Sequence record: NC_010106.1
Origin: Escherichia phage phiEcoM-GJ1
DNA length: 52,975 nucleotides
Direction: 5' to 3' (one strand)
The notes beneath the pieces are model-generated. The model worked only from the letters and a program-made list of their open reading frames with translations, was not told where the DNA came from and did no database searches. This document shows, in pieces, positions 12,420-26,415 of this stretch. The stretch's first letter is position 1, and every line of letters begins with the position of its first letter. The position numbers and the translations under genes are program-made.

Positions 12420-13094
12420 ATGTCTTATCATGATGATGACAAAGAGATTGCACTATCAACGTGTAAGCAATGGCTCAATGATAATGATGCCGTCTATCTT
12501 GCCAAGGAAGATGTTATCATTATGTGGGTCCATTTTAATCCAGAATCGAAGCGCGGTGAGTGGCAACGCTACAAGATGAAAGAGGCTTGTCGCATAATTA
12601 AAGCCACACGCGCTGGCTTCTCTGCTATGAAGTATATTAAGCCAGAGATGCTAATGCTTGCTGCACAGGAAGAAGAACGTGCATATAAGCAAGCTGTAAA
12701 ATCTCGTTCAACTGTTCCTCCAGAGTTCTTTAATTTGGAGCGCGCTGGACACTTCAACAATTTAGAAATGTTGACACTGTGCCTGTTGCAAGAATTAGTT
12801 GGAAGAGGACAAAACATTGAAGCTGTTTGTCTTGGAGAACTCATGAAAGAGTTGTTCTCGGCAAAGGGCTTTGCTGTGCCAAACCGAACTTTACGCTGGA
12901 AATTGTTGCGAGCAGTCGCGCAAGAAGCTGGTGTAGTTGTTCGTGACAGAACAAACCGACTCACTGTGACTGGAGTTGGGCGTTTTGTAGCAATACAGAT
13001 TGAGGGTTATGACGAATCAATCATCACTGAACTCACTGTCGCTGAGACAAAGGATTTAGTAAATAAAACACTAGAACGATTCAATAGATATTGA
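12420..13094 (+). CDS. hypothetical protein
   Basis: 224-aa ORF from ATG 12420 (MSYHDDDKEI...); the track ORF starts at 12363. Confidence 0.55.
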   Translation: MSYHDDDKEIALSTCKQWLNDNDAVYLAKEDVIIMWVHFNPESKRGEWQRYKMKEACRIIKATRAGFSAMKYIKPEMLMLAAQEEERAYKQAVKSRSTVPPEFFNLERAGHFNNLEMLTLCLLQELVGRGQNIEAVCLGELMKELFSAKGFAVPNRTLRWKLLRAVAQEAGVVVRDRTNRLTVTGVGRFVAIQIEGYDESIITELTVAETKDLVNKTLERFNRY

Positions 13095-13123
13095 GTCGTT
13101 TGACGAATCAGAGCAGTTCTGAA

Positions 13124-13144
13124 ACATTAGTTGGATGTGGAAAG
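13124..13144 (+). promoter_or_regulatory. conserved motif ACATTAGTTGGATGTGGAAAG (candidate phage-RNAP promoter)
   Basis: 93 bp upstream of the codon-optimised 13219 gene. Confidence 0.45.
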
Positions 13145-13218
13145 AGAAAGGCTCTTTAATTTTTATCTAAGTCACGTCACCGTGGCGTGCAAAACTATTC
13201 AATATAAGGTATATACAA

Positions 13219-13557
13219 ATGGCTAAGATTGTAACCGTAACTCAGTACGAAGCTAACGATGGTTCCCTGTTCCTGACCGAAGCAGAATGTAATGCGCATG
13301 ACTTCAAACTGGAAAACGGTGCTAAAATTGAGAAAGCTGCCGAAGCGTACCTGAACACCGTTGGCGCTATCGACCGTTCTCGCTCCATGCAGAAGAACAC
13401 CATCGAGCAGTTCCTGGCATTCTACCTGCCGTGGGTTGAAGCTGGTGAGCCGGAAGTTGAGCGTACTAAGTTCGATACTCCGAAAGAAGCTAAAGTTGCT
13501 GACGCAAGTGTTGCCGAAGCTGCCGAAGCTGCTGTTGAAGAAGCTCCGGTATTCTAA
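13219..13557 (+). CDS. hypothetical abundant protein with acidic/Ala-rich C-terminus ending in F
   Basis: 112-aa ORF, AAGG RBS; CTG/CCG/CGT-rich codon usage resembling host highly expressed genes; ends ...AEAAVEEAPVF. Confidence 0.65.
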   Translation: MAKIVTVTQYEANDGSLFLTEAECNAHDFKLENGAKIEKAAEAYLNTVGAIDRSRSMQKNTIEQFLAFYLPWVEAGEPEVERTKFDTPKEAKVADASVAEAAEAAVEEAPVF

Positions 13558-14455
13558 GTTGCCGATGGCAAACTTGAGAGACTAAGCTAAATCGATCTGG
13601 CACGCACTGGAAGATTTCCGGTGCTGCCTTGAATCCATTCCGAGTGAGTGGGTTTCAATTTGTGCATAATCCAAACACCATTGCATGAGCCTTCGACGGA
13701 AGGCAATGTTGGGAAATTTGTTGTGTACAAATTGAAGTAGTTTTCTGAGTCTTACGACGGGCCTAAACTGCCTGAAGTTATTGCGACTGTTTTAAACACT
13801 AAACACAAGTGCAAATGATTCTGAAATGCGAGTTGCGGCTTAATTAAATTTAAGTCCTCTCCGTGGTCTTCCAATCCCATGTAACCAAATTTGGCGCATT
13901 GTGGCTTCGAGATGTGATTAATAAATCGGAGCAATAATTAATTTGTATTCTGCGATGCAATGCAGGCTTAAGTCCCTCAGTGCGCGTAGGGATGTGACAG
14001 AGTACAAACTTAATTATGCAGTTGGATATTTCTAGAGGACGGACGAGCACACTGGAATGTCTTCAATTGGTTTAGTGTGAGAAGCTATGCCAATGTGAAA
14101 CGTAACTCCTTGGGGAAGTGCTCCTCTGGATTTCCCTCCACACAGGAATCTCAAGCCTGTGGCAGCGACTTCGAAGCTGCACTGCGTAACCTAATTCACC
14201 CTAAAGTGAGTTGCCCTGAGCATGGAAATAAACTGCTCATAACCGATGGTATCTACAAAGGTAGATTAAATCAGGTTGCCTGTTGGTACTTGGGTTCAAC
14301 ACCTGCTTGCACTCGCAAAGTAGTGCCTCGTACCTGAGATGAAGTGAGTCGGGACCATCAATCCCACGTTATGTCAAAACACAGTAGGCGACTCACGGAT
14401 TCTACAAGCCTCGCAGTTCGGGAAAACCTGCGTTATCAAAACCCCCTTATTCTTT

Positions 14456-14550
14456 GGACGAGTAGCTCAGAAGGTTTGCATTGTGCTCAGTCAGGTAGAG
14501 CAATCTGTTCGACAGATGTGTCGTTGGTTCGAATCCAACCTTGTCCGCCA
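14456..14550 (+). tRNA. tRNA-like element, non-canonical (possible degenerate or interrupted tRNA)
   Basis: Acceptor stem GGACGAG/CTTGTCC (one G-U), T-arm GTTGG-TTCGAAT-CCAAC, discriminator G plus CCA; TAGCTCAG and TCAGGTAGAGC D-arm halves are separated by a 20-nt insertion that duplicates GCTCAG; the anticodon-arm region forms a hairpin with only a 5-nt loop, so no anticodon can be assigned. Confidence 0.35.
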
Positions 14551-14575
14551 CTCTCAACAACAACATGGAGTCCTC

Positions 14576-14716
14576 ATGGACATTGATGCATTAGACAATT
14601 TGGACTTCGGTGCTGCCGAAGAAGCAATTGAAGAACTCAAGAAGAAGCAGGACGAAGAAGCAATCGTTCCTGGTGCTGGCGATAATGACTGCTCAAGCGG
14701 TGCGTGTGCCATCTAA
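14576..14716 (+). CDS. hypothetical small acidic protein (46 aa)
   Basis: ATG 5 nt after GGAG, directly downstream of the tRNA-like element. Confidence 0.3.
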   Translation: MDIDALDNLDFGAAEEAIEELKKKQDEEAIVPGAGDNDCSSGACAI

Positions 14717-14724
14717 GGTGATTT

Positions 14725-14961
14725 ATGCAACAGCTTAAATCAATAGTTCTTGGCGTCCTGACTGCATTTGGTATTCTTATTGCAGTGTTCCTCAAAGGCA
14801 AAAGCTCAGGCAAAGCCGAGGAGCGTCAGGAAGCCACAGAGAAGCAACTAGATTCATTAAAAGAATCTATCGAGATTAAATCGCATGTTCAGAAAGAAGT
14901 GTCTAGCAGTTCTGATAGCAATGTCGATAGTGAGTTGCTCTCAAAGTGGGTTCGTAAGTGA
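14725..14961 (+). CDS. small membrane protein with N-terminal TM helix and charged helical tail (i-spanin-like or other bitopic membrane protein)
   Basis: AAGGTG RBS; IVLGVLTAFGILIAVFL hydrophobic segment, then a K/E-rich region. Confidence 0.5.
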   Translation: MQQLKSIVLGVLTAFGILIAVFLKGKSSGKAEERQEATEKQLDSLKESIEIKSHVQKEVSSSSDSNVDSELLSKWVRK

Positions 14962-15094
14962 TTATTGCTTAATTGCACAGCCAATATATTTGGATGTTGC
15001 AGAAGTGAAAATCTTATCACGCGAAACCAAAACACAGATTTTAGTCCACAATGAAACGTGGGCACAAAAGTGTTCTCAACTTACCCGACAGTGA
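14885..15094 (+). CDS. predicted lipoprotein (o-spanin-like or Llp-like), overlapping the 3' end of the upstream ORF in another frame
   Basis: MFRKKCLAVLIAMSIVSC: basic n-region, hydrophobic core and lipobox-like IVSC; starts inside the 14725 ORF in the +1 frame. Confidence 0.4.
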   Translation: MFRKKCLAVLIAMSIVSCSQSGFVSDYCLIAQPIYLDVAEVKILSRETKTQILVHNETWAQKCSQLTRQ

Positions 15095-16027
15095 GTGAAC
15101 AAATGCTCGCCATCGCATTTCATTTGGCAGTCCGGTACGGGACTTTAAACACACGTACATCATAGTCGAGGGAGTGCGCGACTTTAAATAACGAGACTCT
15201 AACCACTTGTGGTATGGTAGGTGTAATTCCTGCAAGTTGCTCTGGGCATAACAATTGAAATTGCTGCCTCGCATTGAACGCGAGAAAGTTCAGGTAGTCA
15301 CTTCCTAGAACAGTGGCCGGGAACAGACCTAGACAAAAGTGCTTGAGAACGTTAGCTCTGTCTTGCCAGCATTAATGGCACGTTGGCCGCGTAAAGGCCA
15401 CAGCGTCTGACCAACGTATCGGTCACCAAATTCAATGGATTCGTAGAGTTAATTAAACCTGCACGATGGGATAGGGATGAAGCATCCGAGGCCGACTGTG
15501 TAATTGTGAACGTGGAGTTCACCGAATCCGCCAAATCAATGGGCTAGTGCAAATGTCAGTCACTAGAAGATGTGTTGCAAAACGTCTTCCATGATGTGCA
15601 AAGTGTCAGTCACGTGCCCACCACTTTCCTAACAGTTATGCCTCTGTTCAAAAGGCTCAAGAGAGCGTCTGGCATACCGTAGCGATACGGCTTAGTTGCG
15701 CTGATTGTGTTGTGCAGAAAGAAAGTTCAGGCTTTCGTTTGGGTTACTCCTCATCCCGAAGTTAGCTGGATTCAAAATCCAGACTATGTTCCTATACACA
15801 TGAAATATGCAAGTCGAGGGTTCTTAATGTTCAAACATGATGCGAGCATTAAGCGGGTTTATACTTTTCCCGATGGTCCCCATAAACAAGGCTGATTCAC
15901 TTGGGCGGTTCGAATCAAATTTAATAAGTGTCTTGGCCGCAGTGGAAACATCATTTAAGCCAATGTATTGTAATGTTCGTAATAGTCCACGTCAGGACAC
16001 TTACTTAAATTTTAACTGGAGAGAAAC

Positions 16028-16258
16028 ATGAAAACTGCTGAAATTGCCGAAGAGATTTATAAGGCTGTAATAGCCAGTCAAATTACCAGTGAAGTCCTGC
16101 ACATGGATATTGAAGAAGTTCGCAATGCCTTTGGCGGTTTTGCAATCTTGTCAATAGAAGCTGCGGAAGCACTGACAAACACGTACAACCATCGTGAATA
16201 CGAGAAGCGGTCTGTACTAAATGCGTCGCTAAAAGAAATTCAGGCGTCATTAAAATAA
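16028..16258 (+). CDS. hypothetical protein
   Basis: 76-aa ORF with GGAGAG RBS. Confidence 0.55.
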   Translation: MKTAEIAEEIYKAVIASQITSEVLHMDIEEVRNAFGGFAILSIEAAEALTNTYNHREYEKRSVLNASLKEIQASLK

Positions 16259-16314
16259 TACCATTATCATGGTGCGGAGCTAATTTATCTCCCACCATAT
16301 GAACCGGAGAGCAA

Positions 16315-16965
16315 ATGATTACTGCAACACTCGTTGACCACATGGGCAGCGACCTCACAACTGTTAATGCTGCACGAGCTTCTTATGGTGCAGAGTCCCA
16401 TGAGATGACATTGCGCGACGAAAAGCTCATTGAATTTCTCGCAAGGCATAAGCACAATACACCTTTTGCCCATGCGTATGTAACATTACGCTGCACTGCA
16501 CCAATCTTTGTTGCACGCCAACTGGGTAAGCACCAGGTGGGCTTTCGTTGGAACGAAGTTAGCCGTCGTTACAAAGATGGCGAAGCAATCGAAATTGAAT
16601 GCTTTGTACCTGATGTGGTGTTTGGTCGTCCTGAAAAGTTGATGACTCAGACTGCACAACCATTGCCACAGGATTTTGCTGACGATATTCACTATCGCAT
16701 GGAAATCCACAACAAGGCTTGCATTGCAGAGTATGAAACGTTAATTGGTTTGGGGATTGCTCCAGAGCAAGCCCGAATGGTGTTGCCACAATCCATGATG
16801 ACTACATGGATTTGGACTGGCTCTTTACTGGGCTGGGCTAATATGTACAAGCAACGCTCTACAGAGCACGCCCAATATGAGGCACGTTTGTTTGCAGAAG
16901 AAGTTAATAAAATTATGTCAGAACTATTTCCGGTTTGCTGGAAGGCTTTGACTAATCAGGAATAA
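16315..16965 (+). CDS. thyX: ThyX-like flavin-dependent thymidylate synthase homolog with non-canonical signature
   Basis: Resembles ThyX across the N-terminal half (HxxTPFxHxxxTxxxxAPIFVARQ...S-RY); the position of the canonical RHR-x7-S signature reads KHQ-x8-S. Confidence 0.75.
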   Translation: MITATLVDHMGSDLTTVNAARASYGAESHEMTLRDEKLIEFLARHKHNTPFAHAYVTLRCTAPIFVARQLGKHQVGFRWNEVSRRYKDGEAIEIECFVPDVVFGRPEKLMTQTAQPLPQDFADDIHYRMEIHNKACIAEYETLIGLGIAPEQARMVLPQSMMTTWIWTGSLLGWANMYKQRSTEHAQYEARLFAEEVNKIMSELFPVCWKALTNQE

Positions 16966-21673: not shown

Positions 21674-21945
21674 TGCAAACTGTATATTCCATCTTTGATA
21701 TGCAAGAGTCAGAGCACCATATGTTTGCCACTGATTCCGAAGTTCCTTCAAAGGACGCTGTAATTGCGTTCCTTGAAAAGATTAAGGACAAAGTTTTCGC
21801 TTCGTCCGACCCACAGTCTCAAGCATTTAACGATGAGACATTTAAAAGCCTCCAAACTTTAATTTCGGCAACGTCTTCATTTGAAGAGCTGTCCGAAGCA
21901 TTAGTTGGATATGACTTCCGACTTGCTATGTTGCAGGTCGACTAA
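21673..21945 (+). CDS. hypothetical protein
   Basis: 90-aa ORF overlapping the polymerase stop (TAATG). Confidence 0.55.
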   Translation: MQTVYSIFDMQESEHHMFATDSEVPSKDAVIAFLEKIKDKVFASSDPQSQAFNDETFKSLQTLISATSSFEELSEALVGYDFRLAMLQVD

Positions 21946-25815: not shown

Positions 25816-26415
25816 ATGTCTTGCATGACCCAAGTTGTTGCAGTTAAACGAGTGCATCCTAATGCGAAATTACCTGTGTACGCTACTGCTGGCGCTGCTG
25901 CTGCTGACGTTTGCACTATCTCCGATAGCACTGTTGTCATCAATCCCGGCTGCTCTGCTGTTTTCGATACTGGCCTCCAATTCGAGATTCCAATTGGATA
26001 CGAACTCAAAGTACATAGCCGTTCTGGTCATGGCTTTAAGTCTGGCATTCGCCTGGCAAACTGCACAGGAATTCTGGACTCCGATTATCGTGGCAATCTT
26101 ATGGTTAAGCTGCACAACGACTCGGACACAGCCTTTGTGGTTCAGCCAGGTGAACGTATTTGTCAGGTGCAAGTTAGTAAAGCTACTCAACACCATTTCG
26201 TTGAAGTTGACCGCTTGAATGCAACTGGTCGTGGTGAGGGTGGCTTTGGCTCAACTGGTCGTGTGGAACTTGGTCAACATGAAAGACCACACATTCCTGA
26301 TGGTTCACACTCGCACAGCATCTCTATTGTTGGTGATGGCGGTGTGAAAGTGTCTTTGCCAGGTACTGTTGAAATCACTGGTTCCCACACCCATGGGGCC
26401 GAACGTTACAAATAA
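25816..26415 (+). CDS. dut: dUTPase (trimeric type) with ~50-aa C-terminal His-box extension
   Basis: Motifs HSRSGHGFK, GILDSDYRGN, GERICQ, RGEGGFGSTGR in canonical order; extra C-terminal GSHSHSISIVGDGGVKVSLPGTVEITGSHTHGAERYK. Confidence 0.85.
   Translation: MSCMTQVVAVKRVHPNAKLPVYATAGAAAADVCTISDSTVVINPGCSAVFDTGLQFEIPIGYELKVHSRSGHGFKSGIRLANCTGILDSDYRGNLMVKLHNDSDTAFVVQPGERICQVQVSKATQHHFVEVDRLNATGRGEGGFGSTGRVELGQHERPHIPDGSHSHSISIVGDGGVKVSLPGTVEITGSHTHGAERYK

Follow-up and report, generated by a model that had tools for sequence, protein, structure and literature searches.

A tmRNA-like module within a conserved island of structured RNA in Escherichia phage phiEcoM-GJ1 and other enterobacterial phages

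What does a phage keep in a 2.4-kb interval that holds few open reading frames (ORFs)? The question is raised by positions 13558-16027 of Escherichia phage phiEcoM-GJ1 (NC_010106.1), where an earlier note, made from the sequence alone, had pointed out an ORF-poor island with a non-canonical tRNA-like element and structured repeats. The window analysed here is the whole stretch of 52,975 nucleotides (nt); its long ORFs are all on the plus strand, as are all features described below unless stated otherwise. The island contains conserved RNA elements supported by covariation, among them a widespread module at 13739-13936 that resembles transfer-messenger RNA (tmRNA) and is composed of an mRNA-like domain, a pseudoknot and a terminal hairpin, with a tag-like frame that bears a codon-level signature of selection. 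Judging from sequence comparison, a moderately probable reading, and the one that we prefer, is that the island is a cluster of structured non-coding RNAs with a tmRNA-derived core, which likely provides a phage tag template in trans-translation.

The module opens with an AGUUUUC motif, which is kept in nearly all homologs. Its tag-like frame at 13811-13843, GCA AAT GAT TCT GAA ATG CGA GTT GCG GCT TAA, reads ANDSEMRVAA followed by a stop codon at 13841-13843; for comparison, the ssrA sequence of E. coli K-12 carries the tag ANDENYALAA. Exactly ten codons and an in-frame stop, always as codon 11, were found in all 49 homologs checked. The 46 aligned sequences represent 29 distinct ORFs and 18 different peptides, and among these 29 ORFs codons 1, 2, 3 and 10 vary at the third position only. 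Internal stops are absent from the tag frame in all 29, compared with 24 and 23 of 29 that have them in the other two frames. The peptides, each of ten residues, follow the pattern AN[DE]x...[AV]A*, for example ANDNVFLAVA in Felix O1 and ANDDVVLMAA, ANEEVYLAVA, ANDDQFLAVA, ANDDLMLMAA and ANDNYALAAA elsewhere. The resume-type codon is GCA throughout, with GCU occurring once. On direct reading of the homolog sequences, no AUG, GUG or UUG start and no Shine-Dalgarno sequence precedes the tag frame, and an in-frame stop is located 6-8 codons upstream of it. Ahead of the resume codon, AAGAUAAAU is present in 31 of the 46 sequences; at 13802-13810, AACACAAGU is shared by phiEcoM-GJ1 and Pel53, and either AAAAUAAAU or AAGAUAAAU occupies the site in all remaining Carltongylesviruses and in most lineages beyond them.

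The last tag codons enter a helix-5-like hairpin (13830-13861) with the stop codon at the top of the stem. Every homolog folds an outer and an inner stem with an apical UAA, and the outer stems covary (CUGG/CCAG, CUGAU/AUCAG, UGCAA/UUGCA, GAG/CUC), including a G-C to A-U compensation within Carltongylesviruses. This hairpin is followed by an H-type pseudoknot (13862-13894), in which stem 1 pairs 13862-13866 with 13877-13881 and stem 2 pairs 13871-13874 with 13891-13894. Across the 46 sequences 99.5% of the pseudoknot cells are paired and six of the nine pairs show changes on both sides, compared with 28-65% paired cells and 0-2 such pairs in a control with partners slid by 1-3 columns. Downstream of the pseudoknot there is a hairpin only, at 13904-13932; its loop UGUGAUUAAUAA, which contains the palindrome AUUAAU, is invariant in nearly all homologs, and the stems compensate under the constant loop (GCUUCGA/UCGGAGC, GCCCUGA/UCAGGGC, GCCC/GGGC, GCCCAC/GUGGGC). 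The 60-70 nt upstream of the resume codon are conserved as well (AGUUUUCG...GCGACUUUGCGG...GAAAC), with no single consistent fold derivable for them, and a search of nearby conserved sequence for complements of the loop UGUGAUUAAUAA or of the UUUUCG motif gave only weak, inconsistent enrichment.

How widely is this module distributed? Two stretches of the left non-coding block have matches in unannotated parts of unrelated phages. For 13663-13745 the match is a spacer of the Felix O1-like tRNA cluster; in Felix O1 the module itself also sits within this cluster. Positions 13783-13933 match the Ackermannviridae phages PH4 and Magnus, within 3-kb ORF-poor regions ending in tRNA genes, as well as Klebsiella phage VLCpiS13b, just upstream of the tRNA-Arg and tRNA-Met genes. 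An alignment of eight phage sequences delimited a module of approximately 170 nt with the invariant stretch TGTGATTAATAA, and a pattern scan of IMG/VR combined with the eight-phage profile yielded 62 full-length homologs among 119 candidate loci (E-values from 1e-28 to 1e-43). Of these 62 loci, 13 have tRNA genes at a distance of up to 1.5 kb, and in each case the strand is that of the module. A representative module query matched 496 phage records in GenBank, with nearly full-length matches in 377, from phages of Salmonella, Klebsiella, Escherichia, Shigella, Erwinia and other hosts, including Chaseviridae, Ackermannviridae and T1-like, Felix O1-like and P1-like phages; among the phage matches listed, almost none has an annotated feature under the module. 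Of 5,426 complete E. coli genomes, 670 contain the module; 568 of its sites there are on plasmids and 151 on chromosomes, and these copies are likewise unannotated among the matches listed. A blastn search of the E. coli genomes with the phiEcoM-GJ1 version of the module returned nothing. A bacterial source was not recovered by a pattern scan of representative bacterial and archaeal genomes, which gave no true homolog among the 120 matches listed. Our literature search for tmRNA-like RNAs in these phage groups, which did not cover the 2004 P1 genome paper, found no description of one.

Two contexts illustrate the range of neighbourhoods. In phage P1 (L261, 2502-2700; OP279344.1, approximately 64938-65136), an unannotated module lies between dmt and the tRNA-Asn and tRNA-Thr genes, upstream of trnA, and has the tag ANDDLMMVAA*, a covarying pseudoknot stem GUCG/CGAC and an altered terminal loop; a further unit consisting of CACAACAGGUAAGGGUAUU and a tRNA-like tip follows tRNA-Thr. 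In a lambdoid prophage of E. coli FORC_028 (L262, 3140-4215), the module occupies an unannotated gap of approximately 1 kb that separates the Q antiterminator gene from the holin gene; in Stx phages this is where tRNA genes and stx are located. In the FORC_028 prophage, a pR'-like promoter and a tR'-like terminator follow Q, and the module sits between them and the holin gene. A cloverleaf tRNA mimic was observed after this module, with a D-like loop GGCUGA complementary to the T-like loop AGAUCAGCG. Some members possess a sigma-70-like promoter of their own, placed so that they start right at the 5' motif GAUAGUUUUCG without an upstream arm. Several above-threshold Rfam matches occur near the module in individual loci, namely STnc100 small RNA in Magnus (L021, 4248-4462), Sib antitoxin RNA (L112, 1600-1748), ColE1-type RNAI (L061, 13188-13289) and int-alpA RNA (L045, 264-330), suggesting that some of the "viral contigs" represent prophage, plasmid or chromosomal contexts.

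The resemblance to tmRNA emerges from profile searches and from the architecture of the module. An Rfam scan of the interval, as the earlier note had proposed, gave an above-threshold tRNA match (41.8 bits, discussed below) and, among 4,227 families, sub-threshold matches at the module only of tmRNA families (tmRNA_permuted, alpha_tmRNA and beta_tmRNA), in phiEcoM-GJ1 and nine other loci; a local Rfam search of L108 gave a tmRNA match with an E-value of approximately 1e-3. Other Rfam families, including group I introns, riboswitches, Y RNA-like and ROOL/GOLLD RNAs, had no matches at E-values up to 10. The beta_tmRNA and tmRNA_permuted alignments place the resume region and tag of the models on the 13811-13843 frame: the consensus ...AUAAAUGC.AACGAUGA...GC.GC.UAA and the pseudoknot that follows it are aligned to the phage sequence, and the model consensus ...UAAAUGC.AACGAU falls on the resume-codon context of the module. 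In pairwise comparison with E. coli K-12 ssrA, the best local alignment always maps to ssrA 78-143, which is the resume and tag region. With the coding piece of the bacterial two-piece (permuted) tmRNAs of alpha- and beta-proteobacteria (RF01850, RF01849, RF04321), the module shares an A-rich ..AUAAAU before GCA, a 10-codon frame that starts with A-N-D/E and ends with A/V-A, a stop within a helix-5 hairpin with an H-type pseudoknot directly after it, and a location among tRNA genes. It differs from bacterial tmRNA in having no fused or recognisably paired acceptor and T-arm domain (G3:U70, CCA), in having one demonstrated pseudoknot only and a length of approximately 170-200 nt versus approximately 360 nt, and in being phage-borne, flanked by long hairpins with variable tips and far below curated scores.

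A phage-encoded derivative of a trans-translation RNA has precedents. A 2014 survey of RefSeq viruses at the tmRNA Website named ssrA only in eight mycobacteriophages, and from outside the RefSeq set it described a tmRNA in Bacillus phage G and a molecule consisting only of the tRNA-like domain (TLD) in mycobacteriophage DS6A (PMC4131195). The module resembles the tmRNAs of cluster C mycobacteriophages (e.g., Bxz1) and of Bacillus phage G, as well as the DS6A molecule, in being such a derivative, and DS6A demonstrates that phages can carry just one tmRNA half (PMC4131195). In contrast to the known phage tmRNAs, which are complete and detectable with standard tools or represent the tRNA half only, the present module comprises the message and pseudoknot half and is found in Gram-negative enterobacterial phages.

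Could the missing half be supplied by a tRNA-like element nearby? In phiEcoM-GJ1 such an element is located at 14456-14550. ARAGORN detects it, and RF00005 matches 14456-14547 with 41.8 bits versus a gathering threshold of 29; the Rfam alignment agrees with its earlier description as a tRNA-like sequence with a split D-arm and a hairpin with a 5-nt loop. The acceptor stem GGACGAG/CTTGTCC forms seven of seven pairs, the T-arm GTTGG-TTCGAAT-CCAAC has a canonical T-loop, and the sequence ends in GCCA. The Rfam alignment assigns 23 extra nt to the D-loop and a 5-nt loop to the anticodon stem, the latter corresponding to an invariant hairpin AUCUG-UUCGA-CAGAU. The element thus departs from the canonical cloverleaf, in which the D-loop has 8-11 nt and the anticodon loop 7 nt, and it yields no stable anticodon assignment. 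The insertion of approximately 20 nt in the D-arm exists as two alleles and, on direct reading, looks like a second copy of the 5' half of the D-arm: UAGCUCAG-AAGG... precedes a perfect GCUC-AGUCAGGUA-GAGC. No G3:U70 pair is present. The assignment of the element by ARAGORN as a class II tRNA-Leu(CAG) was rejected as the conserved structure: it implies a two-pair D-arm with an A-A mismatch, and the call is unstable, changing to Ser(GCT) or being lost in near-identical relatives. The element is like a canonical tRNA-Arg or a class II tRNA-Leu in its 7-bp acceptor, D-arm (GCUC AGUCAGGUA GAGC), GUGUC variable loop, T-arm and CCA, and differs from them by the duplication-type insertion of approximately 20 nt ahead of the D-arm and by the 5-nt loop UUCGA. 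The element on which the earlier note had placed its emphasis is real and non-canonical; it is dispensable in Yersinia phage PYps3T and already annotated, as a 95-bp tRNA-Arg in ST32 and phiEcoM-GJ1 (PMC6266442), and that emphasis passed over the tmRNA-like module.

Tandem and divergent tRNA-like elements occur in related islands, which supports the proposal of a tRNA-derived element. The Erwinia relative Faunus (L003, 1764-2517) has four consecutive tRNA-likes of 85-110 nt in the same island, with perfect 7-bp acceptors, canonical T-arms and large insertions; ARAGORN misses all four and one reaches the Rfam tRNA threshold. In the Faunus record, "hypothetical protein" ORFs are annotated over them. 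Phage Y2 and a related metagenomic phage have tRNA-likes with a long variable hairpin in place of the anticodon arm, the T1-like and lambdoid members have a cloverleaf with a 9-bp acceptor-like stem and mutually complementary D-like and T-like loops (GCUGA/UCAGC), and the mimic in L094 is a tRNA match with a 47-nt insertion. In Felix O1, 65 nt after the module, we observed an unannotated 82-nt D-armless tRNA-like (L001, 4303-4384; NC_005282, approximately 25951-26032) with C1-G72, G2-C71, G3:U70, A73, an encoded CCA and an anticodon-type loop CUUCUAA (UCU); the annotated start of the HNH gene ORF45 overlaps its T-arm and is therefore probably wrong. Phage tRNA clusters are known to hold stable RNAs of unassigned role, such as the species 1 and 2 RNAs of T4. 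The island resembles clusters of this type in its co-oriented array of small RNAs, HNH genes and mosaicism, and presumably in maturation by RNases P and E, and differs from them in that most of its units are non-decoding (insertions in the D-loop or anticodon arm, 5-nt loops, kissing D-like and T-like loops) and that one unit is tmRNA-like.

A number of observations weigh against a tmRNA-derived tag template. The best Rfam tmRNA scores are 16.9-27.3 bits versus gathering thresholds of 47-84, and the pairwise similarity to ssrA is weak (z of approximately 3.8 for phiEcoM-GJ1, not significant for the other three sequences). Neither the island nor any of 38 extended homologs gave a tmRNA call with ARAGORN. 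The module has no tRNA-like domain with G3:U70, T-arm and CCA attached to it, and a custom scan for T-arms with acceptors gave only free-standing tRNA-likes without G3:U70, except for the separate Felix O1 element. The tRNA mimics near the module differ between lineages; an alanine identity is absent from them save in this Felix O1 element and in one variant of an ordinary tRNA-Arg. A universal tRNA-like partner was also not supported, as 0 of 18 further loci had a tRNA match in a scan at Rfam gathering thresholds, and in PYps3T the tRNA-like element is cleanly deleted and the module retained. Since the mimics are unrecognisable in these 18 loci and the phiEcoM-GJ1 element is dispensable, as seen in PYps3T, a split tmRNA is put forward here as a hypothesis. 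Tag codons 7-10 overlap helix 5, so that conservation of the frame is partly structural and the clean coding signal comes from codons 1-6 only. Finally, in phiEcoM-GJ1 and Pel53 ACACAAGU replaces AAAUAAAU just upstream of the resume codon. Mutational studies in E. coli have shown that positions -5 and -4 matter for the choice of frame; the phiEcoM-GJ1 copy of the module could therefore be less active than those of its relatives.

An arrangement in one piece was considered as well. In all lineages the module is flanked by helices of 16-20 bp with variable tips, represented by the 13655-13735 hairpin in phiEcoM-GJ1 and by AAGAGCAUU...AGUGCUCUU elsewhere. A one-piece or permuted tmRNA with AAGAGCAUU / AGUGCUCUU, or 13655-13670 / 13720-13735, as the acceptor stem was rejected, a result that also counts against the tmRNA interpretation: the variants L077, L098 and L140 covary only as local hairpins, no T-arm precedes these segments, and the promoter-type members have no upstream arm. 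The hairpin 13655-13735 does show a G:U pair three pairs from a "U-CCA" end; Felix O1 has UCA at this site, and the resemblance was therefore treated as chance. Because the covariation is local and the promoter-type members lack the upstream arm, the flanking helices are more likely processing or stabilising elements that would bound an RNA of approximately 180-200 nt.

Under the preferred interpretation as a tag template, rightward transcription starting at the 13126 promoter, or at one further upstream, would include the island in a long transcript, from which host RNases would cut out stable RNAs at the long hairpins and tRNA-like structures. Stalled ribosomes, probably numerous once infection degrades host mRNA, might then switch onto the tag frame and add a phage-encoded ssrA-like degradation tag (AAND... 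xAA) to nascent chains, which ClpXP-type proteases should recognise. With no alanine-type tRNA-like domain fused to the module, ribosome entry would need a partner; delivery may be provided by the tRNA mimic adjoining the module (Chaseviridae, Felix O1, P1, T1-like, lambdoid) in a split two-piece arrangement, or by some other route. We extend this only tentatively, with more doubt than conviction, to the proposal that at least six lineages (Chaseviridae, Felix O1-like, Ackermannviridae, T1-like, P1-like and lambdoid phages) carry an unrecognised class of trans-translation RNA, a stand-alone tag template without an alanine-accepting domain, which would use a separate tRNA mimic (split tmRNA) or an undescribed entry route and would tag the proteins of stalled ribosomes.

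The rest of the island is structured as well, in line with the earlier suggestion of structured non-coding RNAs. Aligned across 10 genomes, the non-coding blocks equal or exceed the flanking genes in conservation, with 90-100% identity (95-100% for 13808-14007 and 96-100% for 14258-14357, compared with 83-93% for most of the upstream gene), and numerous hairpins keep their pairing through double substitutions, even among close relatives. Folding each 0.9-kb block globally with RNAalifold gave no interpretable structure, and local helices with pair counts were used instead. The 5' long hairpin (13655-13735), immediately 5' of the module, is 81 nt long with a minimum free energy of -34.9 kcal/mol (z = -5.4 versus shuffled sequences). 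Its outer stem has 16 bp, its internal loop is conserved and of 7x7 type (CCAAACA / GAAAUUU), and its apical hairpin is the GCCTTC-GACG-GAAGGC hairpin noticed earlier, which lies at 13689-13704 as the tip of this larger structure. The long hairpin has 81% identity, with compensatory stem changes, to the unannotated spacer in the Felix O1 tRNA cluster (L001, 4001-4082), just upstream of which Felix O1 has the promoter TTGACA-17-TATAGT. In other Carltongylesviruses the hairpin is swapped for other alleles or an HNH gene. Further conserved hairpin modules, with no role assigned, fill 13937-14455; those with compensatory pairs include 13972-13993, 14066-14094 and 14251-14266 (three pairs). Positions 14016-14197 form an optional 182-nt cassette that is absent from Pel53 and SA91KD, and the conservation of 14400-14444 reaches Erwinia phages.

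In the right part of the island, hairpins with compensatory changes were found at 15202-15213 (C-G, U-A and A-U at one position), 15506-15522 (four pairs) and 15823-15853 (two compensatory pairs, 0 of 127 cells unpaired), and a T-arm-like hairpin CTGGA-TTCAAAA-TCCAG with compensatory pairs at 15766-15782. Positions 15635-15943 are 75% identical to Faunus; in the more distant Erwinia Chaseviridae, similarity is confined to islands with partly reordered modules. The direct repeat and 7-bp hairpin described earlier were located as GTGCAAA(G)TGTCAGTCAC at 15547-15563 and 15596-15613, on either side of a hairpin at 15566-15589. The earlier note had held that high variability or absence of the interval in close relatives would count against its reading. 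Such variability is seen in the repeat segment 15547-15613, which is lost or swapped in several relatives, and not in the core, which is conserved. More generally, conserved blocks alternate with exchanged, deleted or HNH-invaded cassettes (13658-13757, 14016-14197, 15508-15657).

The main rival explanation, which we regard as possible yet rather unlikely, is that the module is an untranslated mimic of tmRNA, a decoy or regulator that would bind a host factor (the SmpB tail, S1, RNase R) or the empty mRNA channel, and would thereby inhibit or redirect host trans-translation; alternatively, its invariant loops would pair with host RNA. A decoy accounts for the absence of a fused tRNA-like domain and for the invariant loops: the motifs AGUUUUC and UGUGAUUAAUAA hardly differ between phage families that are unrelated to each other, suggesting that they touch a conserved component of the host and not a phage partner with which they co-evolve. 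The TLD-only molecule of DS6A sets a precedent, and a similar molecule inhibits tmRNA (PMC4131195). What a decoy does not account for is the codon pattern, since third-position-only variation of codons 1, 2, 3 and 10, the fixed 10-codon length and the lack of in-frame stops in the 29 sequences are the prediction for a translated peptide, and a pure RNA decoy needs no ssrA-like C-terminus (xAA / AVA). The same coding-type selection is left unexplained if the hairpins are cis-acting parts of mRNA (RNase III or RNase E sites, stabilisers, terminators or attenuators) that tune lysis and downstream genes, with the tmRNA-like part as a co-opted relic. This improbable scheme fits the lack of an internal promoter within a single-strand transcription unit, the flanking helices, whose 16-20 bp in all lineages are the right length for RNase III, the proximity of the module to lysis genes in Chaseviridae and lambdoid prophages, and the annotation of two island hairpins as terminators in SA91KD. 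It explains neither the occurrence of the pseudoknot module of approximately 170 nt across families with unrelated neighbour genes nor the members with their own promoters in tRNA clusters far from lysis genes. Cis-acting processing roles probably apply to some hairpins of the island and not to the module.

Two further explanations are poorly supported. That the island is a decaying tRNA cluster, made of pseudogenes and homing-endonuclease leftovers without present function, would agree with the dispensable tRNA-like element, with HNH genes inserted at differing points in the Pel53, DE15 and SA91KD relatives, with the degenerate T-arm-like hairpins at 14290 and 15766, and with the gain and loss of cassettes. 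We judge it very improbable given the non-coding blocks conserved at least as well as the flanking genes, the pairing kept through double substitutions, and the persistence of the module in very different phage families; neutral substitution rates in the module are already contradicted. The decayed cluster proposed earlier is unsupported as the main interpretation, because selection on the best-conserved part of the island is purifying and this part is not a tRNA. Least credible of all is that the interval encodes small proteins overlooked by gene callers. Several records do annotate "hypothetical proteins" of 30-86 amino acids (aa) here; however, in most close relatives stops or indels that are not multiples of three interrupt these ORFs, control genes being intact, and outside the 10-codon tag frame the substitutions are compensatory in stems rather than codon-periodic.

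tmRNA is considered a universal device of bacteria whose defining property is that a tRNA-like part is fused to an mRNA-like part. The module would represent a relative of its mRNA half only, selected at the level of the peptide and present in approximately 500 sequenced phages, including the workhorse phage P1, and in approximately one in eight complete E. coli genomes. If the tag-template reading is true, ribosome rescue and protein quality control would be routine targets of phage intervention, the route by which a tag template that lacks a fused acceptor domain gets to the ribosome would become a mechanistic question, and standard annotation (ARAGORN, tRNAscan-SE, Rfam thresholds, PGAP) would be overlooking a common RNA gene and putting spurious small ORFs in its place. 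If the module is a decoy instead, it would represent a new way for phages to act against the host through RNA.

Compared with Carltongylesvirus members of the Chaseviridae (ST32, SKA49, flopper, Bp7 and others), the island shows 88-96% identity. It consists of a left non-coding block (13558-14455), the tRNA-like element, a protein-coding interruption outside the RNA elements, and a right non-coding block (15095-16027) that is found in Chaseviridae only. The interruption comprises a 46-codon ORF from the ORF list (14576-14716), an i-spanin (14725-14961), intact in 12 of 12 relatives, and a lipoprotein o-spanin (14885-15094) that overlaps it, the pair corresponding to "Rz-like spanin" annotations in flopper, EcoM1 and JL1. 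In a projection onto the relatives, the o-spanin frame was shifted by -1 in four of 12, probably an alignment-edge effect at the 3' end. Apart from these genes, 13558-16027 holds no ORF that survives in relatives: ORFs of at least 60 aa inside 13558-14575 and 15095-16027 are intact in only 0-4 of 12 relatives, being lost through stops, non-triplet indels and frameshifts; for the i-spanin and the flanking genes the number is 11-12 of the 12. The single exception is a minus-strand ORF not broken in most relatives, which is uninformative because the stretch is approximately 100% identical among them. The earlier view of 13.56-14.57 and 15.10-16.03 kb as ORF-poor is accordingly upheld; as a label for the whole interval it fits the non-coding blocks and passes over the 46-codon ORF and the spanin pair at 14576-15094.

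Chaseviridae of this group use a T7-like RNA polymerase (PMC6872899, PMC12842549). We searched the window with ATTAGTTGGAnGnGGA, the phage-type promoter motif that is annotated in SA91KD, and obtained 14 matches versus 4.4 expected, every one on the plus strand. The close matches (0-2 mismatches), at 573, 2901, 3837, 7048, 10641, 12794 and 13126, lie in the first quarter of the window, and weaker ones (3 mismatches) were seen at 21900 and 41984. The final copies ahead of the island are those at 12794 and 13126, the latter (ATTAGTTGGATGTGGA, 13126-13141) being the nearest upstream promoter. The window scan found no copy of the motif on the plus strand inside the island, and no sigma-70-like promoter or intrinsic terminator was called on the plus strand within 13000-16500. 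A stable, conserved hairpin GGCACGCACTGGAAGATTTCCGGTGCTGCC at 13599-13628, just past the stop codon of the upstream gene, is annotated as a rho-independent terminator in SA91KD, yet no T-run follows its stem and the terminator scan was negative there.

Some minor observations concern the mosaic character of the island. At the start of the right block, a 15-nt direct repeat GT(A/G)CG(G/C)GACTTTAAA occurs at 15135-15149 and 15174-15188 with a spacing of 39 nt. In place of the 13655-13735 hairpin, HNH homing-endonuclease genes or unrelated inserts are present in Pel53, SA91KD, PYps3T and DE15. The island appears as a hotspot of cassette exchange, as is also seen in L002 (1636-2076) and L005 (940-1146).

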